Shown: piece after piece, positions 11,009 to 58,226 of the stretch
How the letters are laid out: each line of letters begins with the position of its first letter
Numbering within the stretch: position 1 is the first letter of the stretch
From: Gammaproteobacteria bacterium
Lineage (GTDB): Bacteria > Pseudomonadota > Gammaproteobacteria > UBA1113
Reading direction: 5' to 3'
Length of the DNA: 64,000 bases
Assembly (NCBI GenBank): GCA_021773295.1
Contig: JAJFKI010000007.1
Coordinates: 5,046 to 69,045, forward strand
Notes under the pieces: model-generated
Told to the model about the DNA's origin: nothing
Databases searched by the model: none
What the model saw: the letters and a program-made list of their open reading frames with translations, nothing else
Made by a program: the position numbers and the translations under genes

Positions 11009-11041
11009 ACAATAAATAAACGAAAGAGGGGTCGGGTCTAT

Positions 11042-21400: not shown

Positions 21401-21560
21401 ATATACACATCGTACTCCGAAATGCAAGATTAATGCTGCTGCTTTTTGCCCTCATTGAGCGTTTGCAATTTGGCAATAGAATCACTAAAACGTCCAAAGG
21501 GAACAAAAGTTACCAGGCATAAATCTCGCATTTCGAAGTATTCAAAGCCAAACGATGCAA
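21401..21560. repeat. Degenerate, inverted copy of the MITE-like element
   Basis: atatacacatcgtactccgaaatgcaagattaatgctgctgctttttgccc...caatttggcaatagaat...ccaaagggaacaaaag...ctcgcatttcgaagta aligns with the reverse complement of copies at 35230 and 41265. Confidence 0.5.
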
Positions 21561-24042: not shown

Positions 24043-27000
24043 CTAAACAAAGTTTTGCGTAATATCCGTATCGTAGTAAATATCGCCGACTAATGTCAAT
24101 GATTGAACGTGTTGATAGACTTCACCGCCAACGTTAATCGTACCAAGCGCTTGCCATCCTGCACCCGTTTCAATATTGAGTACATCACCTGTGTTACCCT
24201 GTACGATTAGCGTATTTGGCGTGTCAACTGCGCCAAAGGTGTTAATTTCCGTGGACAGATCAAATACATCGGATAAGCCTAAGGTCAAGGTATTATTCCC
24301 GGTGCCGGTGATGTCGACAACTTCAATACCCTCGTGGATTAAATTGTTGATACTGGTTAAATCCACGACTTCACCACTGCCAGATAATTGTAGAGTATCC
24401 AGACCTGCACCACCATCAACTTTCGTCGTGTCTGCAGCATCATAAATGAGGGTGTCATCACCTGCCCCAGCGCGGTAAACATCATTACCACCCTGGCCAT
24501 CTAAGGTATCATCGCCTTGCATCGCAACAAGGTGGTTATCAAAGACATTACCTGTTAAGGCATCCGCCCCACTGGTGCCTTCGAAATCAATAATACCATT
24601 CGTATTTGAACCATAGATAACAAATAGCTCACCTTTACCTGGTCCACCACCAAGTGGGCTTTCGGGACTTCCTAAGATAATATCGTCATAGCCATCGCCA
24701 TCGAAATCGGTGACTTCTAGGTTAGCGCCCGCAATATCATCACGGCCAAATCGTTCATTGGCAGTATCACCATTGATGACATAGCCATTAAAGCCATCAA
24801 TATTTGAACCCACTCCATTTAACGTAAACGGTGCCGTTATGTTTGCCGAGCCGTAAATGACATACAAATCACCCGCATTAGTAAGCCCTTCATCACCTAA
24901 GGGGGCAACAAGGATTAAATCACTATAACCATCACCATTGACGTCCCCTGAGCCACTAACCGTTAACTCACTGGCCGCACTAGCAATAACGGCAAATCCA
25001 ACACTAGGCATACCGCCTACGGCAATACTATTAAATGTCGCTGGTGTCATTGACGTTAACGAAGGACCCCCGTAAATCACATAACCGACAATATCATTTT
25101 CAGCATTTGGCGTGCGTGTGGTAACAAATATATCATTATAACCATCTCCATTGACGTCTCCCGCACCAACAATGTTACCTTCTGCTTCAAAATCAACATC
25201 CGTAAGATCCGCGCCAGCATCAACGACATCAATAAATATACCGTTAGTTCCATTTAATAAACTTGCATCTAATGGGTTGGTGTAAGCACTCGTGCTACCG
25301 TAAACAATGGCAAATCCATCCGTGTTACCATCATCTACTGTTCCAAAGCCAATATCATCTAAACCATCGCCGTTAATATCACCTAAGTTCGCAATTCTTT
25401 GTGTTGCCGTCTCGCCAGTGCCCTCAAATTCAAAGCCGTTAGTGCCATTAACGGTATTCACATCAAGGGTCGCACCAAAACTGGTACTACCAAATATAAC
25501 AAAATGATTGCCACCGTTATTTGTTGTCATTGCAAAATCTGCAATACCATCGCCATTAACATCACCTAAGCCTTGGGCATCGTCAATATTTCCAAAGTTT
25601 AAGTTATCTTCAATTGTAAAACCGCTGAGATCATCAATATGAGTTTCCGCTGAAAGGATTGTGCTTTGTCCGAAAATGACTCTACCAACATTAGTGCCTA
25701 TTGTAGAGGTATAGGAAACCAGCATATCACCAATACCATCACCATTGACATCCCCAAGACCTGCAACTGCAAAGTCGATCTCATTAGCAAACGTGCCACC
25801 AACTGCAACATCACCTGTAATGACAAATCCTTGTGTGCCCGCGCCTAAAGCAGTCTTATTAATGCTACCTGTTACGCGCGTTGCACCACCATAAACAATA
25901 TAGGCTTCGCCATCATCAAAACCTGAAATCGTATTTTCAACGCCACGCGCATTGACGATGATATCGAGAATGCCATCACCATTATAATCACCCACACCCA
26001 CGGCACCACCAAGCGCGTCATCACTACCAATACCATTAAGTGTAAATCCAACAGCATTTGTAAGCGTTGTAGAAACAAGCTCATCAAAGCCAACCACTGT
26101 CACACTCACTGTCGCTGAATCTGTGGCGCCTTGTGAATCTGTTATCGTATAGGTGAAAGTGTCAACAGCCGTTTGCCCACCCGTCAAATTATTATGAAAG
26201 CTCGTACCAAAAGCATCATAAGTAAAGTTACCACTGGCATCCACGGTAACCGTTGCTCCATTCACACTGGTGGCATCAAAACTGGTGACACTAAAGGTAT
26301 CTCCCGTATCGATATCACTATCGTTTGTTACCACGTTACCTGCATCTTTACTTTTCGGATCAGGCAAGCTAACCGTATCAAAGGTGTCATCAACCGCTGT
26401 CGGTGCATCATTCACACCAGTCACAGTAATGGTCACTGTGGCTGTATCTGTACCACCATTACCATCATCGACTGTATAGGTAAAGGTATCGTTGAGGGTT
26501 TGGCCAACTGCTAATGCTTGCAAAGCTGCAGCCACCGTTGAATCATAAGTAAAACTACCATCGCCATTAACATTCACTGTTGCACCATTGACACTAGCTG
26601 CATCAAACACTGTGACTGTTAAGGTGTGGCCATCTGGATCGGTATCATTAACAAGTACGCCAGGCGCTGCAATATTAAGTGGCGTATCTTCATTGGTCGC
26701 ATCGCTGTCATCCATTGCATCAGGGACAAAATTAACGCCCGTTACCGTGACAGTAACCGTCGCTGTATCCGTACCGCCATTACTATCATCTATCGTGTAT
26801 GTGAAGGTGTCATTGAGGGTTTGGCCAACTGTTAATGCTTGTATTGTAGCAGATCCTGTTGGATCATAACTGAAACTACCATTGCCATTGACCGTTACAG
26901 CTGCACCACTGGTGCTGACTGCATCAAAGCCCGTGACGGTTAAACCCTGGCTTTCTGCATCTGTATCATTCACTAATACTCCTGGCACACCCTCATTAAG

Positions 27001-30000
27001 CACTGCATTTTCATCGGTTGCATAACCATCATCCACAGCATCTGGGGCATCATTAATGCCCGTGACATTAATGGTGACTGTCGCCGTATCGGTGCCAGTG
27101 TTGCCATCATCGATGGTATAAGTGAATGTATCATTGAGGGTTTGACCCGTATTGAGTGCTTGTATCGTCGCAGCACCGGTTGGATCATAACTATAGCTAC
27201 CATTGGCGTTGACATTAACTGTGGCACCACTCATGCTCGTTGCATCAAAGGCTGTGACTGTGATACCGTGACTTTCTGGATCCGAATCATTAACTAATAC
27301 ACCCGGCGCACCCGCATTAATCACGCTATCTTCATTCGTGGCATTAGCATCATCCACAGCATCTGGAGCATCATTAATACCTGTGAGTGTCACTGTGACT
27401 GTCGCCGTATCGGTGCCACCGTTACTATCATCAATCGTATAAGTGAATGTGTCATCAAGGGTTACGCCCGTGTCTAATGCTTGTATCGCCGCAGCACCCG
27501 TTGGATCATAACTGAAGCTACCATTGGCATTGACATTAACCGTGGCACCATTCACACTCGTTGCATTAAATGCTGTGACGGTTAAACCATGGCTCTCTGC
27601 ATCGGTGTCGTTGTTCAACACACCAGGCACACCAATATTCAACGCTGTATCTTCATCAGTTGCGTAACCATCATCTACTGCATCCGGAGCATCATTGACA
27701 CCCGTCACTGTGACGGTGACCGTCGCCGTATCGACGCCACCATTACCATCACTCACAGTATAATCGAACGTGTCATTAAGGGTAACACCCGTATTTAAGG
27801 CTTGAATGGTTGCGGCACTGGTAGGATCATAACTAAAGCTACCATCAGCATTGACATTAACTACGGCACCACTCGCACTCGCTGCATCAAACGCAATAAC
27901 TGTCAGTGTATCACTGGTATCAACGTCCGTATCACCATTTAAAACACCTAATGCTGCATTGACATTTAGCACAGCATCTTCGCTCGCATTGTAACCATCA
28001 TTATCAGCGACTGGCACATCATTTTCCCCGGTGATGGTCACCGTTACTGTAGCAACATCTGAGCTACCATTACCATCATCGACCGTATAACTAAAGCTGT
28101 CCACGGCTGTTTCACCGACCGCTAAGGATTCAAACTGACCATTAGGGTTATAAGTGACATCGGTCCCGTTATTGGTGACAAGACCTGTCGTACCCGCGAG
28201 GTTAAGACCGCTAATGGTTAGTGTGTCATTAAGATCTGGATCAAGATCATTAGCTAAGACGTCAACAAGCGTGCCAGCGTTATCTTCACTCACACTTGGT
28301 GTGTCTGCTACGGCTGTGACAGGATCATTAACACCTGAAATATGCATGGTAACCGTTTGCGTCGCTGTAGCACCATGCGCATCTTGTGCAGTATAAGTAA
28401 AAACATCCTGCGCCGTTTCTCCAACAGATAAATAATTAAAATTATTGCCTGGCTCATACTGAAAGTCACCACCACCAAGATCAGTGACTAATCCTATCGC
28501 ACCTGTTGTATTTAAACTTATAAAGGTTACATCCTCCCCTGAGTCAGTGTCAAAGTCGTTACCAATAGGAGAGGGATATATAGGAAAAACATCATCTTCT
28601 GTCAAAAAGTTATTGTCTGCAACTAAGACCATTGGATCATCAACACCAAGCACATTAATTGTCACATGAGCTGTGTCAGTAGCAATCCCATCGGTTATTG
28701 TATAATTGAAAGAATCATTAGTTGTTTGGCCCCCTGGTAAAATTTGTATGATAAAGACCGATGTTGGATCATACGTAAAACTGCCATCGCTTAGTAATGT
28801 AACATCAGCCCCTAGAAGCGAAGTAAACATACCAATTGGTGAAGTTACCGTCAATGTATCTAACGTATCAACATCTGTGTCATTGGCCAATATGCCACTT
28901 GCGGCATTAATATTAAAAATCGTATCTTCAGTAGCACCAACATAACTATCATTTACTGCAATAGGCGCATCATTAACCCCTTGAATGCTATAAGTGACCG
29001 TTGCTGTATCTGTGCCACCATTGCCATCACTGATTGTGTAAGTAAACACGTCTGTAACTACTTGGCCTTCAGCAAGTGCTTGGATATCTGGGTTTGTATT
29101 AGTGATGCTATATTGGTTTAATCCTGATACAGAATCAACGAATAAGTTACCGTAAGTGCCGCCTCCGAAGGAAGGACTTGAAGAAACACTACCAGCAACA
29201 TTTGTAACCGTCAGTGTATCTAATGTATCAATATCTGTGTCATTTACAAACAAGCTCGCACCAGTGTCTGCGAACTGAAATATACTTGGAAGATTCGCAT
29301 CTTCAATCAAAGGTATTGGCTGCGCATCATTGCCTGCCGTTGGTGCATCATTTGCACCTGTGACGGTAATATTTAAATTAGCTGTAGCTGTGGCGCCTTG
29401 ATCATCGGTGATTTGGTATGAGAATGAATCAATCACAGTTTGCGTCGCTGCTAATGCTTGAACATTTGCGGCGGCGTTGTCTAGTGTGTAGCTGTAAACA
29501 CCGTTGCTGGCAATGGTTACCGAGCCATAAGTGCCCATAACTACATTACCTACATTCGCCGGTAGACCAGCCACTGCTGTAACTGAAAATGATGAGCCAT
29601 TATCTACATCAGTATCATTAGTTGTAACTGTACCTCCTGCAACTAAAGTGCCATCTTCAGCCACATCATTTGAATCATCATTTGCTACGGGTGCGTCGTT
29701 GATACCCGTAATCGTCACCGTCACACTGGCTGTCGAGAACCCGCCATTACCATCACTCGCCGTATAACTAAAGGTATCGGTCGCGGTTTCTCCCACGGCT
29801 AAGCTTTCAAATTGTCCATTGGGATCGTAGGTGACATTCGTACCGTTATTAATAACACTGCCCAGTGTGCCCGCCGTATTCACAGCACTCACCGTCAACA
29901 CATCACTCGTATCCGGATCCGTATCATTGCTTAAGACATTAATCGCAACAGCAGGACCATCTTCATCGGCGGCGCCTACATCTGCAACGGCCGTTGGGCC

Positions 30001-31497
30001 ATCGTTTGAGCCCGTAATCGTCACCGTCACACTGGCTGTCGAGAACCCGCCATTACCATCACTCGCCGTATAACTGAAGGTATCGGTCGCGGTTTCCCCC
30101 ACGGCTAAGCTTTCAAATTGTCCATTGGGATCGTAGGTGACATTCGTACCGTTATTGATAACACTGCCCAATGTGCCCGCCGTATTCACAGCACTCACTG
30201 TTAAACTCGGGCTATCAATATCGCTATCGTTGGCTAGTACATCAATCACAACTGGCAAACCATCTTCATTAGCATTCCCAACATCATCAACTGTTGTAGG
30301 ATTATCATTTACGCCATTAACCGTCACCGTCACCGTTGCGGTATCCGTCAAACCTATTTCATCGGTGACAACGTATGTGAACATGTCTATTACAGATTGG
30401 CCAGCCGCTAGAGATTGAAAGCTAGCGGCTGGTGTGTATGTTACGACTCCATTGACAAGTTGTACTGTGCCTGTTGTTGTGCTGCCGTCAATGGAGAGTA
30501 CTGATAATGTTGTACCTGGGTTGGGATCGTTGTCATTTGCTGTTAATACATTTTCGCTTATTACGAGCGGTGTGTCTTCATTTGTTATTAGGTTGTCTGG
30601 ATTCGCAGTGGGAACTTGATTGAGTCTTGCGACGTTAATTGTAATTGGCGCTTCTGCTGTTGCACCACTTGGATCGGTGACCCTAGCTACCACTGTATAA
30701 GTTTGACCACCTAAATAATTAATTGCATCCGCGTTTGCAACTGAGAGAACACCTGTTGTCGAATTAATAGTGAATAAACTGAGCCCATTACCACTTACTA
30801 GTGAGTAAGTGATAGGATCGGCATCAGGATCAGAGGCTTGGACTGTGCCAATGGTGCCACCATCAGGAACAAACTGATTAACATTATATTGCAATGCACC
30901 TATGATGGGCGCTTGGTTGCTAGATTCCGAGACTGTGTTTGTAAAGTCGTCTGGATTATCATCAGACGGTGGTGGTGGCTCATTATCATCGCTAGGTGGT
31001 ATAGTTATTGTGACGGGGGGCTCTGCATTAGGGGTCGTTATTTGTGGTGGACTTTCCAAAGCTGTATTGAAATTTTGAAAATCATTACTTATCAATGAAA
31101 CCTCAGGCACATACTCAAGGGATGAAGATTGCTGTAGTTCCTCCATGGTGTAATAAGTTGTTGGGATCTTTAAATCAGTATCTGTTAAATCAAAGTTTTT
31201 AATTTTTGCGGGTTGAGCTAAACGACCTTGGAGACTTAAACCATCTATTATATGTATTTCTCGATGAACCGCAGAATCGATATACTCCATAGACATACCG
31301 ATTGATACACTCGTTAAACCGCCTGAGAAGAATGCGCCTGGTGTAAACGCAACGATGGATGGCGCAATAATAAAGCCAACCAGACCAACTGCTGTTATTA
31401 CAACATCAGGATGATCAAAAGCGGATTGGCCTACTCGACCATAATCTTGGACAACGACGGAACGTCTTCTTCGTCGTTTCTCATCTGGTAATGCCAT
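24043..31497 (-). CDS. Giant (2484 aa) type I-secreted RTX adhesin. ~14 tandem ~100-aa cadherin/VCBS-like repeats ending in (V/I)NDAP, FG-GAP-like repeats, RTX GGxGxD nonapeptides and a C-terminal secretion signal
   Basis: Repeats (..DAPDAVDDGYATDED..LTVTAF.ATS.NGATVNVN.NGSFSYDPTG...TDTATVTVTVTG(V/I)NDAP); GDVNGDG(Y/I)(N/A/S)D FG-GAP-like motifs; GQGGNDVYRAGAGDDTL RTX motifs; adjacent to ABC/HlyD genes. Confidence 0.85.
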   Translation of the reverse strand: MALPDEKRRRRRSVVVQDYGRVGQSAFDHPDVVITAVGLVGFIIAPSIVAFTPGAFFSGGLTSVSIGMSMEYIDSAVHREIHIIDGLSLQGRLAQPAKIKNFDLTDTDLKIPTTYYTMEELQQSSSLEYVPEVSLISNDFQNFNTALESPPQITTPNAEPPVTITIPPSDDNEPPPPSDDNPDDFTNTVSESSNQAPIIGALQYNVNQFVPDGGTIGTVQASDPDADPITYSLVSGNGLSLFTINSTTGVLSVANADAINYLGGQTYTVVARVTDPSGATAEAPITINVARLNQVPTANPDNLITNEDTPLVISENVLTANDNDPNPGTTLSVLSIDGSTTTGTVQLVNGVVTYTPAASFQSLAAGQSVIDMFTYVVTDEIGLTDTATVTVTVNGVNDNPTTVDDVGNANEDGLPVVIDVLANDSDIDSPSLTVSAVNTAGTLGSVINNGTNVTYDPNGQFESLAVGETATDTFSYTASDGNGGFSTASVTVTITGSNDGPTAVADVGAADEDGPAVAINVLSNDTDPDTSDVLTVSAVNTAGTLGSVINNGTNVTYDPNGQFESLAVGETATDTFSYTASDGNGGFSTASVTVTITGINDAPVANDDSNDVAEDGTLVAGGTVTTNDTDVDNGSSFSVTAVAGLPANVGNVVMGTYGSVTIASNGVYSYTLDNAAANVQALAATQTVIDSFSYQITDDQGATATANLNITVTGANDAPTAGNDAQPIPLIEDANLPSIFQFADTGASLFVNDTDIDTLDTLTVTNVAGSVSSSPSFGGGTYGNLFVDSVSGLNQYSITNTNPDIQALAEGQVVTDVFTYTISDGNGGTDTATVTYSIQGVNDAPIAVNDSYVGATEDTIFNINAASGILANDTDVDTLDTLTVTSPIGMFTSLLGADVTLLSDGSFTYDPTSVFIIQILPGGQTTNDSFNYTITDGIATDTAHVTINVLGVDDPMVLVADNNFLTEDDVFPIYPSPIGNDFDTDSGEDVTFISLNTTGAIGLVTDLGGGDFQYEPGNNFNYLSVGETAQDVFTYTAQDAHGATATQTVTMHISGVNDPVTAVADTPSVSEDNAGTLVDVLANDLDPDLNDTLTISGLNLAGTTGLVTNNGTDVTYNPNGQFESLAVGETAVDSFSYTVDDGNGSSDVATVTVTITGENDVPVADNDGYNASEDAVLNVNAALGVLNGDTDVDTSDTLTVIAFDAASASGAVVNVNADGSFSYDPTSAATIQALNTGVTLNDTFDYTVSDGNGGVDTATVTVTVTGVNDAPDAVDDGYATDEDTALNIGVPGVLNNDTDAESHGLTVTAFNATSVNGATVNVNANGSFSYDPTGAAAIQALDTGVTLDDTFTYTIDDSNGGTDTATVTVTLTGINDAPDAVDDANATNEDSVINAGAPGVLVNDSDPESHGITVTAFDATSMSGATVNVNANGSYSYDPTGAATIQALNTGQTLNDTFTYTIDDGNTGTDTATVTINVTGINDAPDAVDDGYATDENAVLNEGVPGVLVNDTDAESQGLTVTGFDAVSTSGAAVTVNGNGSFSYDPTGSATIQALTVGQTLNDTFTYTIDDSNGGTDTATVTVTVTGVNFVPDAMDDSDATNEDTPLNIAAPGVLVNDTDPDGHTLTVTVFDAASVNGATVNVNGDGSFTYDSTVAAALQALAVGQTLNDTFTYTVDDGNGGTDTATVTITVTGVNDAPTAVDDTFDTVSLPDPKSKDAGNVVTNDSDIDTGDTFSVTSFDATSVNGATVTVDASGNFTYDAFGTSFHNNLTGGQTAVDTFTYTITDSQGATDSATVSVTVVGFDELVSTTLTNAVGFTLNGIGSDDALGGAVGVGDYNGDGILDIIVNARGVENTISGFDDGEAYIVYGGATRVTGSINKTALGAGTQGFVITGDVAVGGTFANEIDFAVAGLGDVNGDGIGDMLVSYTSTIGTNVGRVIFGQSTILSAETHIDDLSGFTIEDNLNFGNIDDAQGLGDVNGDGIADFAMTTNNGGNHFVIFGSTSFGATLDVNTVNGTNGFEFEGTGETATQRIANLGDINGDGLDDIGFGTVDDGNTDGFAIVYGSTSAYTNPLDASLLNGTNGIFIDVVDAGADLTDVDFEAEGNIVGAGDVNGDGYNDIFVTTRTPNAENDIVGYVIYGGPSLTSMTPATFNSIAVGGMPSVGFAVIASAASELTVSGSGDVNGDGYSDLILVAPLGDEGLTNAGDLYVIYGSANITAPFTLNGVGSNIDGFNGYVINGDTANERFGRDDIAGANLEVTDFDGDGYDDIILGSPESPLGGGPGKGELFVIYGSNTNGIIDFEGTSGADALTGNVFDNHLVAMQGDDTLDGQGGNDVYRAGAGDDTLIYDAADTTKVDGGAGLDTLQLSGSGEVVDLTSINNLIHEGIEVVDITGTGNNTLTLGLSDVFDLSTEINTFGAVDTPNTLIVQGNTGDVLNIETGAGWQALGTINVGGEVYQHVQSLTLVGDIYYDTDITQNFV

Positions 31498-31640
31498 ACA
31501 ACCACCAACCTATAACTCAACAACACACTAGCAAAACCTGCCAAAAGAAGTTTTGCTCTCAGTATTTCATAAGTATAGTAAAGCTATGCGAGAATGCTTA
31601 TTAAGTTTTTTTTAATAAAGAAGAAATTTGTTAGTAACGC

Positions 31641-32942
31641 TTAAGGTTCTTTAAAGGCTCTGTCTGTCGCCTTGAAGAATGGATTAAGAATATAGTCTAA
31701 TACTGACTTTTTACTCGTAATAATATTGACGCTTGCCATCATCCCAGGAAGAATTGGGAGTTTCCTGCCTTTTTTGTTCTTCAGATAATTTTTATCTGTA
31801 GCAACTAATACTCGATAATAACTTTTCCCTTCTTCACTCTGCATAGTATCGGCACTGATTACAGCAACTTTTCCTTGCATACCACCAAAAATTGCAAAAT
31901 CATAAGCAGTGAACTTAACATAGGCTTCATCTCCAACTTTGATAAAGGCGATATCTTTTGGATCAACCTGCACCTCTACTGTCAATGTATCATCCAGCGG
32001 TACAAGTTCCATGATGTCTTCACCAGGAGGGATAACGCCGCCGATAGTGCTAATGTTAACATTGTTTACAATACCATTAACAGGTGAAACGATGGTCGTC
32101 CTGAATGCTCTATCTCTTGATGCTTCGATCCCTTTTTGCAAAATAATAAATTCTGACTGTAAATTTTTAAAGTTTTTATAGGCGTCTGCTTTAAACTTTT
32201 CTTTTTCTTCAATAATGCTGCCTTTAATTTCATTGACCTGTCGTTGCACGCGAATCAACTCTAAGTCTGACATAATCTGCTCTTTTACTAATGGCTTTAA
32301 TATATTTAATTCTTTGTTAGCCAAATCATAACTTCTTTGCATTGTCGATAAGCTTGTTTTTAAATCTGACATCCTTGCTTTAAAGATTTCAGTTTCACTT
32401 TTCACTAGCTCAGGGGCATTCTTTCTGACTTCCTGAGGGAAATCAATTGAAGTATCACCATTAATTTCAGCTCGGTAGCGAACAATTGTAGTGAGTAATG
32501 TCAAATATTTTATGTACTCTTCATTGTAATCCGCTTTAAAACGTGTATCGTCCAATTTTAACAAGGGTTGACCTCTTTTAACACGATCACCGTCTTTAAC
32601 AAATATTTCTTCAATAATCCCACCTTCTAAACTTTGAATAACTTTTACTTTTGATGAAGGTATTACTTTGCCTTGCCCAATAGTCGTTTCATCGATATAG
32701 CCAAGTCCTGCCCAAATAATCGCAATTAATAATAAGGCAATAACGGCATACAAAAAGAGGTTAGCTGCTCTTGGCGTAGTAATTAACAATGCTTGTTTGC
32801 TATCTGAGACAAAATCAATATCGTCAAGCTCTAAGCCATATAGTTTTTCCATATGCTTTAAATATTTCTGACGTGCTTCTAAATGTGATGAATGCACATC
32901 ATCAGACTTGTTCTCAACATCATTGTTTTTTTCGTCACTCAT
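31641..32942 (-). CDS. Type I secretion periplasmic adaptor (HlyD/LapC family)
   Basis: N-terminal TM anchor, long coiled-coil, C-terminal beta domain; start set at MSDEK (8-nt overlap with ABC transporter stop), the tracked ORF extends further. Confidence 0.85.
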   Translation of the reverse strand: MSDEKNNDVENKSDDVHSSHLEARQKYLKHMEKLYGLELDDIDFVSDSKQALLITTPRAANLFLYAVIALLLIAIIWAGLGYIDETTIGQGKVIPSSKVKVIQSLEGGIIEEIFVKDGDRVKRGQPLLKLDDTRFKADYNEEYIKYLTLLTTIVRYRAEINGDTSIDFPQEVRKNAPELVKSETEIFKARMSDLKTSLSTMQRSYDLANKELNILKPLVKEQIMSDLELIRVQRQVNEIKGSIIEEKEKFKADAYKNFKNLQSEFIILQKGIEASRDRAFRTTIVSPVNGIVNNVNISTIGGVIPPGEDIMELVPLDDTLTVEVQVDPKDIAFIKVGDEAYVKFTAYDFAIFGGMQGKVAVISADTMQSEEGKSYYRVLVATDKNYLKNKKGRKLPILPGMMASVNIITSKKSVLDYILNPFFKATDRAFKEP

Positions 32943-35091
32943 CTTTTTCACCTGCTGTGTTGTCCCCCAAACGCTCAAGAATCTTATCTTTACTCCCTTG
33001 CGCAAGTACCGTCCCCTTGTCAATCACAATCAATTTATCTAATATATTCAATATTGACATACGATGTGCTGTCAGTATTAATGTTTTGTCTACTATCATT
33101 TTTTGTAAATTGGTAATCACTCGCTTCTCAGTTTTAAAATCCATTGCGCTTGTGGGTTCATCAAATAGAAAAACGGGTGGGTTACCTAAATAGGCGCGTG
33201 CTAATGCAATACATTGTCGCTGCCCACCTGACATACTGGCACCACGTTCATCGATAAGCATGCGATAACCTTCATGATGTTCATTTGCAAATTGATCAAC
33301 TGCAGCAAATTCCGCAACTTTTATCACAGCACTATCTTCTACCCATGGTGCTCGCAAGGCAATGTTGTCTCTCAAAGTACCATAAAATAATGTGAAATCT
33401 TGTAATACACTGCCTATGTTTCGTCGTAAGTCCACAGGGTCAATTTGTGCTATGTCAATGTTATCAATCTTGATATTACCATCTTGTGGTTTATATAAAC
33501 CAAGAATCAAACGTTGAATCGTCGTTTTACCAGAACCTGTCCCCCCAATAATACCCATCTTATCGCCTGCTTCAATTTTGAAGGAGACATTATTTAGCAC
33601 AGCATAATCACTGGTTGGGTAAGCAAAGGTAACATTTTCAAATTCTACTGAACCTTTCAATTTGGTATAGCTAGTATACTTTTTCCCCATAGGACGTTCG
33701 TGAGGAAGCTCCATTATCTTATTTAAACCTTTAAGTGCAATTCTTGATTGTTGTATTCGAATTAAAATATTCGTGATTTGTGCTAATGGCGCTAATGCTC
33801 TACCCGCAAGAATGGTACAAGCGATTAACCCACCTACGGTTAATTGCCCCTGCATAATAAGATATACACCTAATATCACCACAGTCACCGTCACAACTTG
33901 CTGGATGAATGTGGCAAAGCTCATGGCTATTACTGAGAAGAACCTTGAACGTTGTGATGCACGGTAAGTAATACCAATATATTTTTCCCAACGACGCAGC
34001 ATAGTACCTTCTGCTACCATGCTTTTTAAAGTTTCCAAACCATTGATTGACTCGATCAAGACTGCATGCTTTTGGTTAGAACCAATGTAAGCCTTTTCTA
34101 TTGCCCTTCGCATCGGAATTTCTAATAAAATGCCCGCAAGGATAACCAAAGGCACAGCAATCAGCGGTACTATAGCCAGGACACCACCAATCATGTAAAT
34201 AATATATATAAATAGCAATACAAATGGAAAGTCAATAAAGCAGGTGAGTGTTGCTGATGTGAAAAAATCTCTTAGTACTTCAAACTCTCGTAAATTATTA
34301 GCAAACGCACCTGAGGAACTTGGCTTAGAACTTAGATTAATCGACAGCATCTGATTAAACAGCGTACTTGCAAGCAATACATCTGTTTTTTTACCGCTGA
34401 TGTCGATAAAGTGCCCTCGCAAAACTTTCATGACAAAGTCAAACAAGAATATAATTCCAACACCTGACGCTAATACCCAAAGAGTTTCAACCGTACTATT
34501 TGGGATTACTTTATCATAAACAATCATAATAAAAATTGGTGTAGCCAAAGCAAATGCATTAATCAAAAATGCTGACATCATCACCCTAACAAAAATAGAT
34601 TTATAACGGAACATTGTTCCCCAAAACCATGACTTTTCTTTTTGCACTTCAAATTCATCGGCACGCTTTTCAAAATCAACTTGTTTTTGACAAAAGATAG
34701 CATAGCCACTGTATTGATCAGCAATAGTTTCCAGGCGTATTCGTTTTACCGAGACATCTGTTTCAGGGAAAATGACTTCCGCCGTGCCATCATCAAAATA
34801 TTCTGTTATTAAGCAAGCTCGATCATCCTTAAGCACTAGCACTGCAGGCAATACTAAGCCAGGAATTCTATCAATAGGCCGCTTAACAACTTTCGCATAA
34901 TAACCAATGCGTCCAGCTGCCCTAATAAATAACTGTGGTGTTAACTTGCGCCCAACCAATGGCAGACCCGCCGTTAATGATTCCATCGAGTGTGGTTGTT
35001 GATCAAACTTTGTAAGAATGACCAAACAACCCAATAATGGATCATCAAAATGTAATTCCTGAAACCCCAAGTTTTCACTAAATTGAGTCAT
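32935..35091 (-). CDS. Type I secretion ABC transporter (HlyB/LapB family) with N-terminal C39-like domain
   Basis: 718 aa; ~130-aa N-terminal C39-like domain, 6-TM domain, Walker A GGTGSGKTT, signature LSGGQRQ. Confidence 0.88.
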   Translation of the reverse strand: MTQFSENLGFQELHFDDPLLGCLVILTKFDQQPHSMESLTAGLPLVGRKLTPQLFIRAAGRIGYYAKVVKRPIDRIPGLVLPAVLVLKDDRACLITEYFDDGTAEVIFPETDVSVKRIRLETIADQYSGYAIFCQKQVDFEKRADEFEVQKEKSWFWGTMFRYKSIFVRVMMSAFLINAFALATPIFIMIVYDKVIPNSTVETLWVLASGVGIIFLFDFVMKVLRGHFIDISGKKTDVLLASTLFNQMLSINLSSKPSSSGAFANNLREFEVLRDFFTSATLTCFIDFPFVLLFIYIIYMIGGVLAIVPLIAVPLVILAGILLEIPMRRAIEKAYIGSNQKHAVLIESINGLETLKSMVAEGTMLRRWEKYIGITYRASQRSRFFSVIAMSFATFIQQVVTVTVVILGVYLIMQGQLTVGGLIACTILAGRALAPLAQITNILIRIQQSRIALKGLNKIMELPHERPMGKKYTSYTKLKGSVEFENVTFAYPTSDYAVLNNVSFKIEAGDKMGIIGGTGSGKTTIQRLILGLYKPQDGNIKIDNIDIAQIDPVDLRRNIGSVLQDFTLFYGTLRDNIALRAPWVEDSAVIKVAEFAAVDQFANEHHEGYRMLIDERGASMSGGQRQCIALARAYLGNPPVFLFDEPTSAMDFKTEKRVITNLQKMIVDKTLILTAHRMSILNILDKLIVIDKGTVLAQGSKDKILERLGDNTAGEKDE

Positions 35092-35229: not shown

Positions 35230-35406
35230 CCGCATATACCCATCGTTCTTCAAAATGCGAGATTTAGGCGATTTGATTTTTGTTCCCGTGCAGGCTTTGA
35301 AATGCGGGTAATAGCCATTCTATTGCCAAATTTCAAAGCCTGTACGGGGACAAAAAGCAATAGCATTAATCTCACATTTTGGAGTACGATGGGTATATAC
35401 CCATCG
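35230..35406. repeat. MITE-like ~175-bp palindromic element, copy 1
   Basis: ~28-bp terminal inverted repeats (atatacccatcgttcttcaaaatgcgag / ctcacattttggagtacgatgggtatat) flanking an internal long imperfect palindrome; terminates in the 20-bp perfect palindrome cgatgggtatatacccatcg. Confidence 0.6.
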
Positions 35407-37432
35407 CACTCCAGCCAGTGTCTGGTTTAAAACGTGCGCCCATGCTAGTTTCCAGTCGTGAAAAGATTTCTTTGCGTTGATCATCTGCTAATTGTTGTAC
35501 ATAGTGAATGGGGCCACCTCTGAAGGGAGCAAAGCCAGTGCCGAAAATAATCCCGGCATCTAATAAATCAGCATCAGAGACTATACCTTCACGTAAGCAG
35601 GCAACGGCTTCATTCGCTAAACGTACGACTAAGCGTAATGCAAGATCATGAGGTGCTTTATAGTTGTTTGGTAGCTTTGGCTTTTGTGCGATGCCATCAT
35701 TATAACGATATAAACCTTGCCCTGTCTTTTTACCTAGGTGCCCTTCTGAAATAAGTTGATGTAATATTTCTGTAGCTTTCTCATCTTCACCTAGATGAAT
35801 ATTTTCTAGTGTCAATAAAACAACATCTAAACCTATCGTGTCTAACAATTCCATGGGCCCTATGGGCATACCAAAATTTTCAGCTGCCCTATCAATTGCA
35901 GCCATAGGCACACCTTCATTTGCTATTAAGAATGCCTCAAAAAGGTAAGCAGCTAACACCCTATTTACCAAAAATCCTGGTGCACTTTTTACGGGTAGTG
36001 GTAAGCGTCTCAATGTGCGTACAAAAGCAATCGCATGCTGTTTTTCTGTATCAAAGGTTCTAGGATTATAAACAACTTCGACCAGTGGCATTTTGTGAAC
36101 GGGATTAAAAAAGTGGATTCCTACTAATCGCTCAGGTTGTTGCATCATTGCAGAAATTTCTTTTAGCATTATACTTGACGTATTTGTCGCTAAAAGTGCT
36201 GTGGGTTTTGCTTTTTCTTCAATGTCTTTAAATAAAGCTTGCTTTAACGCAACATCTTCACTGACTGCCTCAATGATAACATCGGCTTTGCGAATACCAT
36301 CACCCGCAACATCGGCTTGTAAGCGATCCATAGCATCACGAATTTTGAGTGGATCTGTTAATTTTCTAGTAAATAATTTATGTGCTCGCTTAACTGCTGG
36401 TGCTATATATTGGGTATGTCGATCTTGTAATGTCACACGATAACCTTTCAGTGCACACCAGGTAGCAATATCACCGCCCATAACGCCAGCACCTATTACA
36501 TGCACATGCTGAGCTTCAAAGACAATGAGATCATCAAGGTTTTTTAAGCGTTCCTGTAAAAAGTAAACTCGTGATAAATTTATGGCAGTATCTGTCATTA
36601 ATAATTTACCGACTGAATTTGCTTCGGCAATGTAACTTTTCTCACTGTAAATGCCATGCGTTAACCAATTTTCCACAATGGCATAAGGTGCAGGATAATG
36701 TTCAATCTTAACGTCTTTAGCGTTTAATTTTTTACGGATAAGAGAAGCAACAACCGGACGAATGAACGACCAATTTAAAGTATTTTGCCAAAAACTTGCT
36801 TTTTGTTTGGCGGGTTTGTTTTGTAAATAATAAAGTGCTGAGTTATTTAATTGTCGCTCTGGTACAGCATCATCAATCACCCCCATAAGTTTTGCTTTTT
36901 TTGCAGAGATTGGACGACCACTTAACATCAACGTAATTGCAGCAGAAGGCCCGATCAATCTCGGTAAGCGTATCGTCCCCCCCCAACCAGGATGAATGCC
37001 TAACATGACTTCTGGCAGACCAATGCGAACTTGATGCTGCAATGAAGCAATACGATAATCGCATGCTAGGGCAAGTTCTAAGCCACCTCCCAAACAAAAT
37101 CCATTAATGAGTGCAACGGTTGGGAAACTAAAGGCTTCTAACTTATCAAATATTTGTTGTACTTGACGAATTAAGTCTACTGCTTTATTTACATCATTAA
37201 ATTGAGAAAATTGTTCAACATCAGCACCTGAAATAAACCCACTTTCTTTGCAAGAGTAAATGACCATGCCCTGTGGTGCCTGCGCGGGTAATTTGTCCAC
37301 GATATCATTGAGCTCTTCTAAAACAGGATAATTTAAGGAATTTGTTGCGCTATCTGCTCGATCAATACCAAGCCACAAAAATCCATCTGCCGTTTGCTTT
37401 ATTTTCCAGTGTTGATATTCTCTACTTGGCAT
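35372..37432 (-). CDS. fadB: Fatty-acid oxidation complex alpha subunit (enoyl-CoA hydratase / 3-hydroxyacyl-CoA dehydrogenase)
   Basis: 686 aa; N-terminal crotonase fold, central NAD-binding GAGVMGGDIA; the last ~10 codons of the tracked ORF run into the repeat element so the true stop context is uncertain. Confidence 0.85.
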   Translation of the reverse strand: MPSREYQHWKIKQTADGFLWLGIDRADSATNSLNYPVLEELNDIVDKLPAQAPQGMVIYSCKESGFISGADVEQFSQFNDVNKAVDLIRQVQQIFDKLEAFSFPTVALINGFCLGGGLELALACDYRIASLQHQVRIGLPEVMLGIHPGWGGTIRLPRLIGPSAAITLMLSGRPISAKKAKLMGVIDDAVPERQLNNSALYYLQNKPAKQKASFWQNTLNWSFIRPVVASLIRKKLNAKDVKIEHYPAPYAIVENWLTHGIYSEKSYIAEANSVGKLLMTDTAINLSRVYFLQERLKNLDDLIVFEAQHVHVIGAGVMGGDIATWCALKGYRVTLQDRHTQYIAPAVKRAHKLFTRKLTDPLKIRDAMDRLQADVAGDGIRKADVIIEAVSEDVALKQALFKDIEEKAKPTALLATNTSSIMLKEISAMMQQPERLVGIHFFNPVHKMPLVEVVYNPRTFDTEKQHAIAFVRTLRRLPLPVKSAPGFLVNRVLAAYLFEAFLIANEGVPMAAIDRAAENFGMPIGPMELLDTIGLDVVLLTLENIHLGEDEKATEILHQLISEGHLGKKTGQGLYRYNDGIAQKPKLPNNYKAPHDLALRLVVRLANEAVACLREGIVSDADLLDAGIIFGTGFAPFRGGPIHYVQQLADDQRKEIFSRLETSMGARFKPDTGWSAMGIYPSYSKM

Positions 37433-38741
37433 CTGCTGCTACTTCCCCATTTTCAACAATAATTGCCCCACCTTGACCACCACCAATGCAAATTGATGCT
37501 ACACCACGTTTAGCATTTTGTTGTCGTAACACATGCGCTAAATGCAAGGTTATCCTTGCACCACTGGCCCCGACGGGGTGACCCAAGGCAATTGCACCAC
37601 CATGAATATTTAAACGCGCTGCATCCAACGGGCCAAAGGCTTGCGGCAAAGTAAAATGTTGTCGACAATAATTAGCATCATTAAAGGCATCCATGCATGC
37701 TAGCACTTGAGCAGCAAAAGCTTCATTAATTTCCCAATAATCAACATCATTCATTGATAATTGATGTTGTTGCAATAAGGGGATACTTGCATGTACTGGT
37801 CCTAACCCCATGACCCCAGGATCAACACCGGCCCAGTTGACAGCAACTAAGCGGCCTAGCGTTGGTAGATTCCATTTTGCAACAGCCTTTTCACTGGCAA
37901 GAATTAACAGTGCTGCGCCATCAGTGATTTGGCTGCTATTGCCAGGCGTTACAAACCCATACTTTTTATCAAAAAAAGGTTTTAACTTAGCTAATCTTTC
38001 AATGCTTGAATCACTACGCAAACCATTATCATATTCGTAGTACTGACCCTGATTATCAATCAGTGGCACCACTTCTTCTGTCATTACGCCTTGTTCAATA
38101 GCCATTGCTAACTTTTGATGGCTTTGTACCGAGAATTCATCCATGCTTAACCGATTGATCTTAAAATTATAAGCTAGGTTTTCAGCAGTTTGCCCCATGC
38201 TAAGACCTATCATCGGGTCATTTAAACCACGTAAAATGGAAATGACCGGCTTTAGGAATGACAAGCGTGTTTTTAACAACAGACTAGCTCTCTTGGAAAA
38301 CGTCTTCGCGCTGTACCAAGCGCTTAACCATGCGATCATATCTTGATTAAACAACAAAGGTGCGTGGCTCATAGCTTCTGTTCCACCCGCTAACACAAGA
38401 TCGTGTCGTCCTGATTGAATGTCTTTCATCGCGCTGTCAATTGCTTGCATGCCAGACGCACAATTGCGTTGTACCGTATAAGCCGGTGCTTGCGCTTGAC
38501 AACCTAAGCGCAAAGCAATAAGCCGCGCGATATTTGTTTCATCAGGATTAGACATCACAGAGCCAATAACAATGCTTTCAATGTCTTTTGCGCTAAAGGC
38601 TTGACGATTTAATAAGGGCTGACCCGCTTTAACCGCTAAATCAGCCGCAGTAAAAGGACCCGGTTTATTTCTGGCTTTAAGAAATGGTGTGCGAGCACCA
38701 TCGACGATATAAACTATACGGCCCGGACTTTCTCTAGACAT
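37422..38741 (-). CDS. fadA: 3-ketoacyl-CoA thiolase
   Basis: 439 aa; thiolase active-site Cys (NCASGMQA) and C-terminal GxGxG motifs; overlaps fadB start by 11 nt. Confidence 0.88.
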   Translation of the reverse strand: MSRESPGRIVYIVDGARTPFLKARNKPGPFTAADLAVKAGQPLLNRQAFSAKDIESIVIGSVMSNPDETNIARLIALRLGCQAQAPAYTVQRNCASGMQAIDSAMKDIQSGRHDLVLAGGTEAMSHAPLLFNQDMIAWLSAWYSAKTFSKRASLLLKTRLSFLKPVISILRGLNDPMIGLSMGQTAENLAYNFKINRLSMDEFSVQSHQKLAMAIEQGVMTEEVVPLIDNQGQYYEYDNGLRSDSSIERLAKLKPFFDKKYGFVTPGNSSQITDGAALLILASEKAVAKWNLPTLGRLVAVNWAGVDPGVMGLGPVHASIPLLQQHQLSMNDVDYWEINEAFAAQVLACMDAFNDANYCRQHFTLPQAFGPLDAARLNIHGGAIALGHPVGASGARITLHLAHVLRQQNAKRGVASICIGGGQGGAIIVENGEVAADAK

Positions 38742-41185
38742 TCTTCTTGCTTCCCAGCTAATTCTTCATCCGTGAAATCGTCAACTGCGACAGCTTTTCT
38801 CACTGCTTCATCTGCCTTTCTGAGGAGTTCGATTTCTTCCTTCGTTAAGATCCCTTCTTTTGCTGCAATATTTAACTGCTCTTCAAAATCTGAAGCAGAT
38901 GAAATTAAATCTTCACTCACCGCTGAATAGAATTTTTTCTCAGCATCTTTCGCCGCAAGCACTGCATTAAAAGCATATTCCACTCGGCCCGTTGGATCAT
39001 CTACGCCCTCGCCAATAAAGATATCTTTGGTAAACTCTTTTCTGAAATCTGTTTGCTTAATCATTGCTCTTACAAGCTTATGTGATAATTCATCGGACGG
39101 ACCAGTACGATAGCTTTGCCCATAAGGGAAAATGACAAGTCGCATACAACGCCCCACCCCTTTAATTGGGAAGTTATGCGTTAAGTCGTCAATGGCTTTT
39201 TGAGTTTGTTGCAAAATATATTGCATAGCCCACTCAGCACTGTCTAAATCTGTTTCTGTCTCACCTTGCTCACGACAACGTCGCAATACTGCGGAGCCCA
39301 AATACAAATAACTTAAGATATCACCTAACCTGGCGGATAAGCTCTCTTTGCGTTTAATATCCCCCCCTAAGAGCAGCAGTGATATATCCGTTGCAAAGGC
39401 AAGCGCCGTGCTCATGCGCGTCAGTTGGCGGTAATAAGGTAGTAATTTTTGTTCGATGGGCACATTAATAAAGCGCCCACCAGTAATGCCATACCATAAG
39501 GCTTTAGCTAAATTACTTAAAGCATAGCCAATGTGCGAATACAACACTTTGTCGAACGCTTTCAACGCATCCTTACCTTCACCACCATGGGCTGCTTGTA
39601 TTTCAGCTTCAATGTATGGGTGACAACGCATAACGCCTTGCCCAAAGATAATTAAATTGCGCGTTAAAATATTTGCGCCTTCTACGGTGATGCTAACGGG
39701 TATTGATTGATGAGCGTGGCACATATAGTTACTGGGTCCATGCTGAACCGCCTTGCCTGCATGCACATCCATCACATAATTCAACACATCTCTACCTAAC
39801 TCCGTAGTATGATATTTCGTCAGCGCAGAAGCAATAGATGGTTTTAAGCCTAAATCAACAACGGAAGCCGTCATGGCACGCGTTGCTTCGATGATATAGG
39901 TCTTACCAGCAATATTCGCTAGAGCTTCTTCAACACCTTCAAATTTAGCAATAGGAATTTTAAATTGTTTGCGAATACGCGCATAAGCACCTGTCATTGC
40001 ATAGCCTAGGCGAGCCGCCGCACTGCTGATGGCTGGCAAAGATATAGAACGACCAATGGACAAACATGCCATTAACATTTTCCACCCTTCACCCAATCTA
40101 TCTTGGCCACCAATGATAAATTCCATCGGAATGAAAACGTCTTTACCTCGAGTAGGGCCATTCATAAAAGCCATACCCGCAGGAAAATGACGTAGGCCAA
40201 CTTCAACACCAGGATAATCTGCAGGGATTAAGCAGAGGGTAATGCCAATGTCTTCTTTGTCCCCCACAAGCTTATCTGGATCATATAATTTAAAGGCTAA
40301 ACCAATCACCGTTGCAATCGGTGCTAACGTGATATAGCGTTTGTCCCACGTCAAGCGAATGCCAAGCACTTCGCTCCCCTTATACATGCCTTTACAAACA
40401 ACACCTTTATCTGGAATTGAGCCCGCATCACTTCCGGCACTAGGGCCGGTTAAACCAAAACATGGTATCTCTTCACCAGAAGCTAAACGCGGTAAATAAT
40501 AATCTTTTTGTTCATCGGTACCATAATGATAGACTAATTCAGCGGGCCCAAGTGAATTAGGTACCATCATGCTAACGGCAGCACTCAAGCTTCGTGAGGA
40601 TATTTTACCAACAATGGTTGAATGGGCATAGGCTGAAAAAGCATGGCCTCCATATTTCTTTTCAATACATAAACCAAAAAAACCTTCTTTTCGCATATAG
40701 TCCCAAGCGGCTTCAGGGATCCGCCTGTCTTGCACAATTTGCCAATCATCTAGCATACGACATAAGGTGTTCACTTGGTTATCGACGAAGGATTGTTCTT
40801 CCTGACTTAAGGTTGGCTTTTTATACTCTGAAAACTTTTTCCAATCTGGATTGCCTTGGAATAAGTCTTTCTCCCACCAGACATCACCCGCATCTAAGGC
40901 TTCTTGCTCCGTTCGGCTAATAGGCGGTAATACACGTTTAAAATAAGCCAATATACCTTTGGTAAAGAAAGGCCGACGAACGTCAGCAATATTGAAAAGA
41001 ACCGCACTAACTAGATAAATAATCCAAGCGGGAAGTAATATAAACCAAGTCACAGAGCTAAAAAAGGAGTATACAAGAAGGACCGCAGCCATCACGCCCG
41101 TCCACACAATCGTCTTAGTACGATGAAATAAAAGCCACCAAACAATACCGATTAAAAGCAAAAATTCAATTAGTCCAGTCATCAT
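38714..41185 (-). CDS. fadE: Acyl-CoA dehydrogenase, long FadE type with N-terminal membrane segment
   Basis: 823 aa; collinear with E. coli FadE (FQGNPDWKK...; YGTDEQKDYYLPRLA.G.EIPCF.LT.P.AGSDAG.IPD.G). Confidence 0.88.
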   Translation of the reverse strand: MMTGLIEFLLLIGIVWWLLFHRTKTIVWTGVMAAVLLVYSFFSSVTWFILLPAWIIYLVSAVLFNIADVRRPFFTKGILAYFKRVLPPISRTEQEALDAGDVWWEKDLFQGNPDWKKFSEYKKPTLSQEEQSFVDNQVNTLCRMLDDWQIVQDRRIPEAAWDYMRKEGFFGLCIEKKYGGHAFSAYAHSTIVGKISSRSLSAAVSMMVPNSLGPAELVYHYGTDEQKDYYLPRLASGEEIPCFGLTGPSAGSDAGSIPDKGVVCKGMYKGSEVLGIRLTWDKRYITLAPIATVIGLAFKLYDPDKLVGDKEDIGITLCLIPADYPGVEVGLRHFPAGMAFMNGPTRGKDVFIPMEFIIGGQDRLGEGWKMLMACLSIGRSISLPAISSAAARLGYAMTGAYARIRKQFKIPIAKFEGVEEALANIAGKTYIIEATRAMTASVVDLGLKPSIASALTKYHTTELGRDVLNYVMDVHAGKAVQHGPSNYMCHAHQSIPVSITVEGANILTRNLIIFGQGVMRCHPYIEAEIQAAHGGEGKDALKAFDKVLYSHIGYALSNLAKALWYGITGGRFINVPIEQKLLPYYRQLTRMSTALAFATDISLLLLGGDIKRKESLSARLGDILSYLYLGSAVLRRCREQGETETDLDSAEWAMQYILQQTQKAIDDLTHNFPIKGVGRCMRLVIFPYGQSYRTGPSDELSHKLVRAMIKQTDFRKEFTKDIFIGEGVDDPTGRVEYAFNAVLAAKDAEKKFYSAVSEDLISSASDFEEQLNIAAKEGILTKEEIELLRKADEAVRKAVAVDDFTDEELAGKQEECLEKVRAV

Positions 41186-41264: not shown

Positions 41265-41442
41265 GTATATACCCATTACAGATGAAAATGCGAAATTAGG
41301 GCGATTTGATTTTTGTTCCCTTTGGACGTTAGAAATGCAGGTAATAGCCGGTCTATTGGCAAATTTCTAACGTTCAAAGGGGGCAAAAAGCAATAGCATT
41401 CATTTTGCATTTTCATCTGTGATGGGTATAGACCCATTACAG
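41265..41442. repeat. MITE-like ~175-bp palindromic element, copy 2
   Basis: Same termini (tatatacccattacagatgaaaatgcgaaatt / ...cattttcatctgtgatgggtataga) and internal architecture as copy 1; internal arms carry co-varying substitutions. Confidence 0.6.
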
Positions 41443-41539
41443 ATTCTGGCCTCATTTTGTCTGTTAATATTTTCCTTATTAAGCTATCTCTAAGGATACT
41501 TTTTGCGCATATTAAGTATACCCATCATACTTTTGATTC

Positions 41540-42070
41540 TCACTTACGCTTATGCTTTGTTCTGCGACGTGCCATTTGTTTTTTCGGTGATAAAGTAAAC
41601 CAATCTTCCTCCTTAATTGGGTGAAAATAATCCGCTTCCTCAGCCAGTAATGCTGATGTGGTTTCTTCAATCGCCGCGATTTCTATCCTTACACCTTCTG
41701 TTTTTAAATGGCGCACTAATTCAATATAGTCAGAGTCGCCAGACATAATGATAATGGTGTCTACCTTGCTGGCTAACTGCATTGCTTTAATCGACAAAGG
41801 AATATCTGCACTCTTATGACATGGGCGCACAGAGCCATGATACAGTTGATGCAAACGTTCTGCTAATTTTGATGAAATTTGCACCCCTTCGCGAAAATAA
41901 ATCAAACGATTTAACGCTCGGTTCAAGATGAGTCGTGGAATTAATTTATCAAAATTTAACATAGCACCTTCATCACCACACCGTTCATGGATACTACGTT
42001 CTATATTATTACCATCCACTAAAATGGCAACGGATTGACTTATAACGACATCGGGGGATTGCTGTGCCAT
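41540..42070 (-). CDS. NYN/LabA-like (PIN-like) domain protein with basic C-terminal tail
   Basis: 176 aa; VAILVDGNN and ...IIMSGDSD motifs typical of NYN/LabA nucleases; C-terminal KKQMARRRTKHKRK. Confidence 0.55.
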   Translation of the reverse strand: MAQQSPDVVISQSVAILVDGNNIERSIHERCGDEGAMLNFDKLIPRLILNRALNRLIYFREGVQISSKLAERLHQLYHGSVRPCHKSADIPLSIKAMQLASKVDTIIIMSGDSDYIELVRHLKTEGVRIEIAAIEETTSALLAEEADYFHPIKEEDWFTLSPKKQMARRRTKHKRK

Positions 42071-48886: not shown

Positions 48887-48926
48887 TATTTCTCCCTTTA
48901 AAATTTATCTCTACACCCATCGTACT

Positions 48927-50084: not shown

Positions 50085-50171
50085 AGTGAATCTTTTCCAA
50101 ATATTGCCGTATTGCAATGAATCAGGATGGATTATATCCTTACTGATTATACTTTGCTAGGAAAGAATACT

Positions 50172-53957: not shown

Positions 53958-54118
53958 TTTTCTCTAGTACCTCTTCCATGTTGTTGAATCATTTTAATGA
54001 ATGCTTAAGCATAAGTACACCTTAGTGTCTATTTGTTTCAATTTAAAAATCATTAAGAGCCTTATTAATAGGTATATGGCCCTCACTACGCTATATTTTA
54101 AGTATGGGTGGTTAGGAT

Positions 54119-54577: not shown

Positions 54578-54586
54578 GGTATTCAG

Positions 54587-58223: not shown

Positions 58224-58226
58224 AAG

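Follow-up and report, generated by a model that had tools for sequence, protein, structure and literature searches.

What is the palindromic repeat at the end of the fadB-like gene in this gammaproteobacterial genome, and what does it do there? The whole 64,000-nt stretch analyzed here (the window) was originally predicted to carry a dispersed, MITE-like palindromic family with terminal inverted repeats. This description is supported: the copies align with each other, fold as hairpins and recur elsewhere. The repeats at the three places first named are real and far beyond chance by alignment, blastn, a covariance model and shuffles.

Elements in the window and their neighboring genes

Copy 1 is an intact element of 163 nt (TATACCCATCG...CGATGGGTATA) at 35235-35397 on the plus strand, which is also its better-folding 'sense' strand. 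Its neighbors are a type I secretion ABC gene (32935-35091, minus strand) on one side and the fadB-like gene (35372-37432, minus strand) on the other, and an inverted partial terminus (TATACCCATCGCACTCCA, 35396-35413, plus strand, 18/27 to the consensus) abuts it. The extent originally given, 35230-35406, is too long for the element proper, the excess being five flanking bases and part of the abutting terminus. Copy 2, also intact and 163 nt long, occupies 41268-41430 (plus strand, sense strand plus) between the fadE-like gene (38714-41185, minus strand) and a NYN-domain gene (41540-42070, minus strand). It is abutted by an imperfect partial terminus at 41427-41444 (plus strand; TATAGACCCATTACAGAT), which on direct reading repeats 13 nt of the left end of copy 2. 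Copy 3, at about 21401-21552 on the minus strand (sense strand minus), is inverted and decayed, with the apex deleted in part and the 5' end disrupted; a GGDEF/EAL gene and a beta-lactamase-fold gene flank it.

Smaller pieces are also present. A 35-nt relic at 10975-11009, absent from the original prediction and assigned to no strand, is a mini-hairpin in which 24/27 bases of the left terminus are joined to CGATGGGTA of the right terminus by an internal deletion at a CGA microhomology. The lone termini that had been predicted are confirmed: the right end CGATGGGTATA of a copy truncated at the start of the window (1-11, minus strand), a terminus at 41517-41534 (plus strand, 18/27) lying 6 nt 3' of the NYN gene stop codon, and one at 48912-48930 (plus strand, 19/27). 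The window thus totals two intact 163-nt elements, one decayed inverted copy, the 35-nt relic and four lone ends. A 20-bp perfect palindrome had been assigned to every copy; it occurs at copy 1 only (35387-35406), copy 2 having an imperfect version and copy 3 none. It is the junction of the full element with the abutting partial terminus, which have one TA in common, and is no feature of the element itself.

Copies 1 and 2 are 76% identical in register over 171 nt (blastn E 3e-33), and copy 3 matches both in inverted orientation (E 6e-23). As units of 163 nt, they are not the short low-complexity strings that would have undone the proposed family. The covariance model R1, whose training set consists in part of copies 1 and 2, gives 144.6 bits at 35235-35397 and 144 bits at 41268-41430 (both plus strand). 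Copy 3 was not used in training and scores 48.6 bits (E 1e-10) at 21413-21540 on the minus strand versus 26.4 bits on the plus strand; the R1 scan of the 64-kb window gave nothing significant besides these three. The terminal 11-mer TATACCCATCG with at most one mismatch is found 11 times in the window (0.67 expected), and the terminus consensus is matched at 18 or more of 27 bases at 10 sites (about 1 expected).

The FadB-like protein is the same as one NCBI protein, and its next best matches are from Legionellales/Legionella at 51-60% identity. By this protein similarity the genome belongs to Legionellales; its GC content is about 0.41. The fadE/fadA/fadB naming has Pfam support (acyl-CoA dehydrogenase with the bacterial FadE C-terminal domain, thiolase, and enoyl-CoA hydratase/3-hydroxyacyl-CoA dehydrogenase), and copies 1 and 2 do bracket this operon. 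The other neighbors are, by Pfam, ordinary genes: GGDEF/EAL, beta-lactamase fold, type I secretion ABC and HlyD, and NYN domain. A transposase, recombinase or reverse transcriptase was not found among about 40 of the roughly 46 window ORFs that were scanned.

Three other features of the window stand out. An ORF of 1,410 aa at 3627-7859 (plus strand) consists of Gly/Asn-rich repeats with a 9-nt period, has no Pfam match, and has a GC content of 0.51 versus about 0.41 around it. The region 24043-35091 (minus strand) holds a 2,484-aa adhesin-like ORF with 14 Big_9/cadherin-like domains, FG-GAP repeats and 321-nt tandem DNA repeats. Beside this ORF are the HlyD-family and ABC genes, pointing to a type I secretion system and its giant substrate. 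A Tad/Flp pilus cluster occupies 53088-64000 (prepilin peptidase, TadE/G-like, RcpC, secretin, ATPase, TadB/C-like).

All copies had been placed in intergenic space at operon boundaries. Their location at gene boundaries stands, but copy 1 is not purely intergenic and overlaps the FadB-like ORF (annotated as 686 aa). The last nine codons of this ORF, stop included, lie inside copy 1, and the preceding three lie in the abutting remnant. Homology of FadB to its relatives stops at ...RFKPDTGW, and the tail SAMGIYPSYSKM with the stop codon is made up of the abutting partial terminus and the element. Similarly, the aminotransferase ORF at 48927-50117 (minus strand) has its stop codon (48927-48929) within the lone end at 48912-48930. 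These two reading frames show that copies land at gene ends and can provide new C-terminal codons and stop codons. Elements of this kind change gene ends in annotation, as in the fadB tail and stop, and masking or flagging them is advised.

Relatives in other genomes and the connection to ERIC

One genome per species (185,579 species) was scanned for the pattern TATACCCATC, 128-158 bases, GATGGGTATA, for which roughly 20-30 chance matches are estimated. The scan gave at least 110 loci, and among the matches listed about 97 are true members, from roughly 36 assemblies. Most of the listed loci are hairpins of 157-172 nt, the typical member being about 163-167 nt long. Many further copies thus exist beyond the window, in other genomes, by both the pattern scan and R1. 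About 13 listed loci (in Bacteroidota, archaea, Bacillota and others) were set aside as chance or something else.

The true members listed come from a Legionellaceae genome (UBA6148), five Cysteiniphilum species, Facilibium, two Caedibacter, several gammaproteobacterial MAGs, Thiohalomonadales, Kangiellaceae, Colwellia, Psychromonas and Methylophagaceae. Also among them are one Burkholderiales MAG, several alphaproteobacterial MAGs including a Rickettsiales, and a zetaproteobacterial Mariprofundaceae MAG. A Saprospiraceae MAG (Bacteroidota) has an R1 match of 75 bits (L080, 3862-4022) with more terminus motifs nearby and is a candidate member; if this match is real, the family reaches beyond Pseudomonadota. 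In the cultured Legionella adelaidensis the family is found in 24 places on 9 records, with the ends TATACCCAAG...CTTGGGTAT. Further subfamilies occur together in one MAG, with left ends TATACCCAAA, TATACTCGAA or TATACCCCTC, each with a complementary right end. Since the ends vary in this way among subfamilies, in L. adelaidensis and in the MAG, the invariant part is TATACYC...GRGTATA only.

It could be argued that the repeats are non-mobile palindromic sites for protein binding or regulation that originated where they now are, or that their likeness is a matter of chance or low complexity. The terminal palindrome is operator-like, and no transposase was found in the scanned ORFs. This explanation is effectively refuted by the 163-nt units with 76% identity in the window (E 3e-33), by R1 matches of 45-149 bits on the listed loci across lineages at phyla-level distances, by flanks that are unrelated housekeeping genes, and by shuffles, which exclude chance.

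Several observations were made on the listed loci themselves. The L. adelaidensis NCTC12735 records NZ_LR1344xx (L113-L118) are labelled 'plasmid' and carry polA, dnaE, secD, hflK/C and lpxD; they are chromosome pieces. The first 8,000 nt of contig_18 of MAG CBDBBL01 (L009, 1-8000) hold, within 8 kb, at least six elements that belong to two or three subfamilies, a density far above that of the window. In three loci of the same MAG (L003, L008, L085) one frame of the element is open, so that calling ORFs from the first start codon gives unrelated downstream genes spurious N-terminal extensions (MNFSKIKFKKSSNS...). An apparent recurrent ORF family among the loci was rejected for being the element itself, translated as such extensions. 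Near-perfect palindromes of 167 and 177 nt with the same TATACCCATC ends occur in a Pseudomonadota MAG (L006, 5-171) and a Nostocaceae MAG (L100, 28-204). Their interiors are unrelated and have no R1 match, and they could represent additional branches of the superfamily or a coincidence. Two to three close inverted pairs of the same 10-mer, spanning about 170-265 nt, in Candidatus Roizmanbacteria (L071, 1662-1832; L075, 2238-2502) may be a different short palindromic repeat.

An all-against-all ORF comparison of the 110 listed loci gave no recurrent neighbor or transposase, and no mobilizing gene was found beside the truncated L. adelaidensis copies (118 loci including those of the pattern scan). 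Viral contigs gave 0 hits in their scan, and metagenomes scanned for a 20-mer from the window subfamily yielded 4 matches attributed to chance, of which the model confirmed none. A literature search that did not extend to Zo 2011 (on ERIC divergence among Gammaproteobacteria) found no description of the 163-nt form, and one with the terminal 10-mers returned unrelated primers only.

The original prediction had compared the elements with ERIC, and the relationship is real, through the termini. One listed locus, in a Pseudomonadales MAG (L058), is a 128-nt ERIC-core element that also ends in TATACCCATC...GATGGGTATA. Multi-copy sequences matching its interior are present in 5,426/5,426 complete E. 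coli genomes (median 8 places), and these agree with the published 127-nt ERIC consensus tatacccgtcatatttcaagctgcag...gggtata (PMC2759123). The terminal 27 nt of ERIC agree at 18/27 bases with window copy 1 and at up to 21/27 with the relatives; beyond TATACCC, ERIC and the relatives agree at 14/20 (P about 3e-5 for one comparison). The ends TATAC(C/T)C...G(G/A)GTATA, with TA at both ends, are also those of the window copies. Like the family, ERIC is a single long imperfect hairpin that folds better on the corresponding strand (-61.8 versus -45.2 kcal/mol), and R1 aligns the E. coli ERIC end to end with 25 bits. Both have intergenic or gene-end positions with fusion to the 3' ends of ORFs (for ERIC, PMC2759123), and for both no transposase is known.

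The differences are also clear. The window copies, at 163 nt (157-172 nt in relatives), are 36 nt longer than the 127 bp of ERIC, the family has the apex TAATAGC-N5-CTATTGC, and the central core (the ERIC1R/ERIC2 region) is absent from the window copies. The one match to the ERIC core 17-mer in the window has three mismatches and is at chance level, and blastn of the window element against the 5,426 E. coli genomes gave no match. The hosts also belong to groups other than Enterobacteriaceae and Vibrionaceae, the range given for ERIC in PMC10969869. Published accounts give ERIC that range, TA ends and a TA target duplication, and name no transposase (PMC2229807, PMC3184786, PMC10969869). Lacking the core and any blastn similarity, and being longer with another apex, the window copies are not ERIC in the strict sense. 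They are a sister design in a wider family that is set by ends and hairpin, and the relationship to ERIC lies in about 27 terminal bases and the overall shape only.

A hairpin maintained on one strand

The fold check proposed for the element gave, for each intact copy, nearly one hairpin over its whole length. RNA folding energies of copies 1, 2 and 3 are -100, -90.3 and -49.6 kcal/mol (z = -15.3, -14.7 and -4.8), and copy 1 folded as DNA gives -56.9 kcal/mol (z -13.5). The inner stem of copy 2 has compensatory changes relative to copy 1. An Rfam scan of the window gave 0 hits at the gathering threshold and, at permissive settings, only sub-threshold matches to generic hairpins (miRNA precursor).

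The ends TATACYC...GRGTATA are common to members and nearly invariant. In an alignment of 38 diverse members the ends are invariant, the total length is conserved, and the apical hairpin TAATAGC-N5-CTATT is invariant, with G-R-G before it (5') and C-A-A after it (3'); in most lineages the apex reads G-R-G-TAATAGC-N5-CTATTGC-AAR. The Burkholderiales MAG, CAZQVA01 and several alphaproteobacterial MAGs have the same frame with a different apex. The basal stem of about 27 bp covaries in sequence between lineages, with fixed internal loops, and the stems between ends and apex are wholly different among lineages, yet paired. In a covariation test on 33 pairs with a MAFFT alignment fitted to no structure, 96.6% were paired versus 81% in shuffles and about 40% with slid partners. 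The corresponding covariation scores were 0.44, 0.15 and about 0.10. RNAalifold recovered 59 pairs from a 10-sequence alignment, with compensatory double changes in 39 of the 59.

One strand always folds better, by 10-30 kcal/mol, and the same strand bears the apex motif. Counted in the stems of 40 elements oriented by the apex alone, leaving out the apex and the terminal 10 nt, G.U pairs number 229 versus 55 A.C, and G.U exceeds A.C in 38 of 39 informative elements. R1 gives the L. adelaidensis copies, which it was not trained on, 102 bits in sense and 60 bits in antisense. The orientation of the elements relative to neighboring genes is random (co-directional same 7, co-directional opposite 9, convergent 6, divergent 8), and there is no orientation bias with local GC skew (16 versus 15). 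A mutation bias linked to replication or transcription therefore cannot explain the strand asymmetry, and with random orientation selection on read-through mRNA is unlikely to be its main cause. Private departures from the consensus of the own genome lean weakly toward G.U over A.C (54 versus 33 distinct events, P 0.03), in a count based on structure-independent orientation, as an energy-based orientation could bias such counts. From these patterns we infer that the pairing constraint acts mainly on propagating lineages, that is, on a single-stranded form of the element.

The copies had also been proposed to act as terminator or promoter modules. This idea finds no support: consensus scans in and at copies 1 and 2 found neither a sigma-70-like promoter nor an intrinsic terminator, and orientation is random relative to the neighboring genes. 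An mRNA co-transcribed with a copy would carry a very stable additional hairpin of 68-100 kcal/mol. This is the same kind of structure as ERIC in Yersinia, whose RNA has been reported, in work cited in PMC2229807, to have an orientation-dependent effect on mRNA stability.

Another explanation is that the host retains the elements as structured RNA genes or cis-acting RNA modules because of an RNA function (mRNA stabilization or decay, or a protein-binding RNA), with their multiplicity being secondary. The consistently better folding of one strand with its conserved apex, the strong covariation, the lean to G.U among within-genome variants (54 versus 33 events) and the Yersinia effect cited above are all in agreement with such a role. 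We nevertheless consider it quite improbable, as the copies are oriented at random relative to genes, with 8 of 30 between divergent genes, have no promoter- or terminator-like signals (copies 1 and 2), have no Rfam match and intrude into coding ends. Decayed copies, relics and lone ends are frequent, and a single genome may have several subfamilies and clusters, e.g. at least six copies in 8 kb.

Proposed insertion, decay and propagation

A search for filled and empty sites by joining the flanks of all loci found no pair, its hits all being artefacts that abutting termini produce. Frequently an inverted partial terminus directly adjoins a full element, and in every such case the two have a single TA in common (GGGTA-TA-TACCC). 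Junctions of this kind were seen at 7 of 224 ends versus a background of 0.15%, and three of the seven are one orthologous event. The shared-TA junctions fit an element proper, TACCC...GGGTA, that would be inserted at a duplicated TA, with newer insertions beside older copies. A TA duplication is reported for ERIC (PMC2759123, PMC2229807, PMC3184786).

Decay products are common. They include lone ends of 17-25 nt and mini-hairpins of 34-49 nt in which both ends are retained (at 10975 in the window and in loci L117, L027, L033 and L058). In four Cysteiniphilum species, orthologous copies have about 93-95% identity to one another, a level like that of their flanks, and an adjacent partial terminus is much more diverged. 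As the copies are about as conserved as the flanks, recent movement is not evident in Cysteiniphilum. At one L. adelaidensis locus (L113, 1501-1812) two copies lie in direct tandem 8 nt apart, the second without the first bases of its left end, which suggests a local duplication rather than an insertion.

The elements are short and non-coding, with terminal inverted repeats and multiple dispersed copies, as is expected of MITEs, and they are probably mobile. The reading that we favor, with a probability of roughly 0.7, is that of a non-autonomous, probably TA-targeting, MITE-like hairpin element that is part of a broad ERIC-like superfamily. An enzyme supplied in trans would recognize the TATACYC ends and probably also the apex. 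Insertion would take place at a TA dinucleotide that is then duplicated, as the literature has it for ERIC. Because one strand retains its pairing irrespective of the direction of neighboring genes or of replication, the hairpin is most likely important while the element propagates in single-stranded form. After insertion, internal deletion would give rise to the mini-hairpins and lone ends. A TA duplication points to a double-strand DDE-type mechanism, which by itself would be no explanation for the strand-specific pairing.

That pairing also brings to mind the REPINs. The elements could be ssDNA hairpins moved by a single-copy chromosomal HUH/tyrosine transposase (RAYT-like or IS200/IS605-like) and not by a TA-duplicating DDE enzyme, the lone ends being defunct remnants like REP singlets. 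The strand-specific pairing is independent of genomic orientation, lone ends and mini-hairpins are common, and no IS partner was found in the scanned window ORFs or the listed loci. The family shares with REPINs the conserved ends, the variable interior or spacer of conserved length, the pairing kept by compensatory changes, which suggests a single-stranded form, and the remnant-like lone units (PMC3116915). On direct reading, however, the termini are not themselves short hairpins of the 20-40 bp REP type and carry no GTAG/CGTC tag; the family elements are larger and have TA-bearing TATA ends. Neither a RAYT gene nor any other Y1/HUH transposase was found among the about 40 window ORFs scanned. 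HUH transposases are not known to duplicate a TA target. The shared-TA junctions fit such a target, and the ERIC relatives are reported to duplicate it (PMC2759123). A REPIN-like origin is thus unlikely, and a TA-targeting MITE-like element is the preferred reading.

Other known repeats resemble the family in part. The ends of the Correia/NEMIS repeats of Neisseria begin with TATA, and we take their terminal sequence to be unrelated to the termini of the family. At about 105-155 bp these repeats are MITE-like, with terminal TA, a TA duplication and a hairpin RNA that is often co-transcribed (PMC2229807), but their inverted repeats are ends of only ~26 bp, whereas the family pairs over nearly the whole unit. 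The QMITE2 elements of Coxiella burnetii, also of Legionellales, have 150-190 bp, 3' UTR and intergenic locations, a long hairpin and short derivatives (PMC5896051). Their description includes a GTAG REP and direct repeats of 7-11 nt that vary in sequence, and the window element has neither; identity with QMITE1/2 was rejected, the two being set apart by published descriptions, not by sequences. YPAL/RU-2 of Yersinia (about 168 bp) is similar as a hairpin-forming intergenic repeat of like length, but was rejected for having no TA ends, internal inverted repeats and an unrelated published sequence (PMC2759123 Table 1b; PMC2229807). The elements are not integron attC sites either, as they have TATACCC/GGGTATA ends in place of the RYYYAAC/GTTRRRY core and are flanked by housekeeping genes and operons, with no cassette array or intI.

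ERIC repeats have been a tool for strain typing for decades. The present elements show that Legionellales have a longer relative of ERIC whose ends are the same, and that dozens of distant genomes share this design. This broad comparative set exposes the constrained parts, namely the ends, the apex, the length and the one-strand pairing, and so makes a search for the mobilizing enzyme feasible. A more speculative possibility, which we regard as rather doubtful, is that ERIC and the 163-nt relatives form one ancient superfamily across Pseudomonadota that propagates via a strand-specific single-stranded hairpin (DNA or RNA), and that a conserved enzyme encoded away from the elements reads the TATACYC base and the apical hairpin. 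If this is true, phylogenetic profiling that identified the enzyme would settle how ERIC-type elements move, a question 35 years old.
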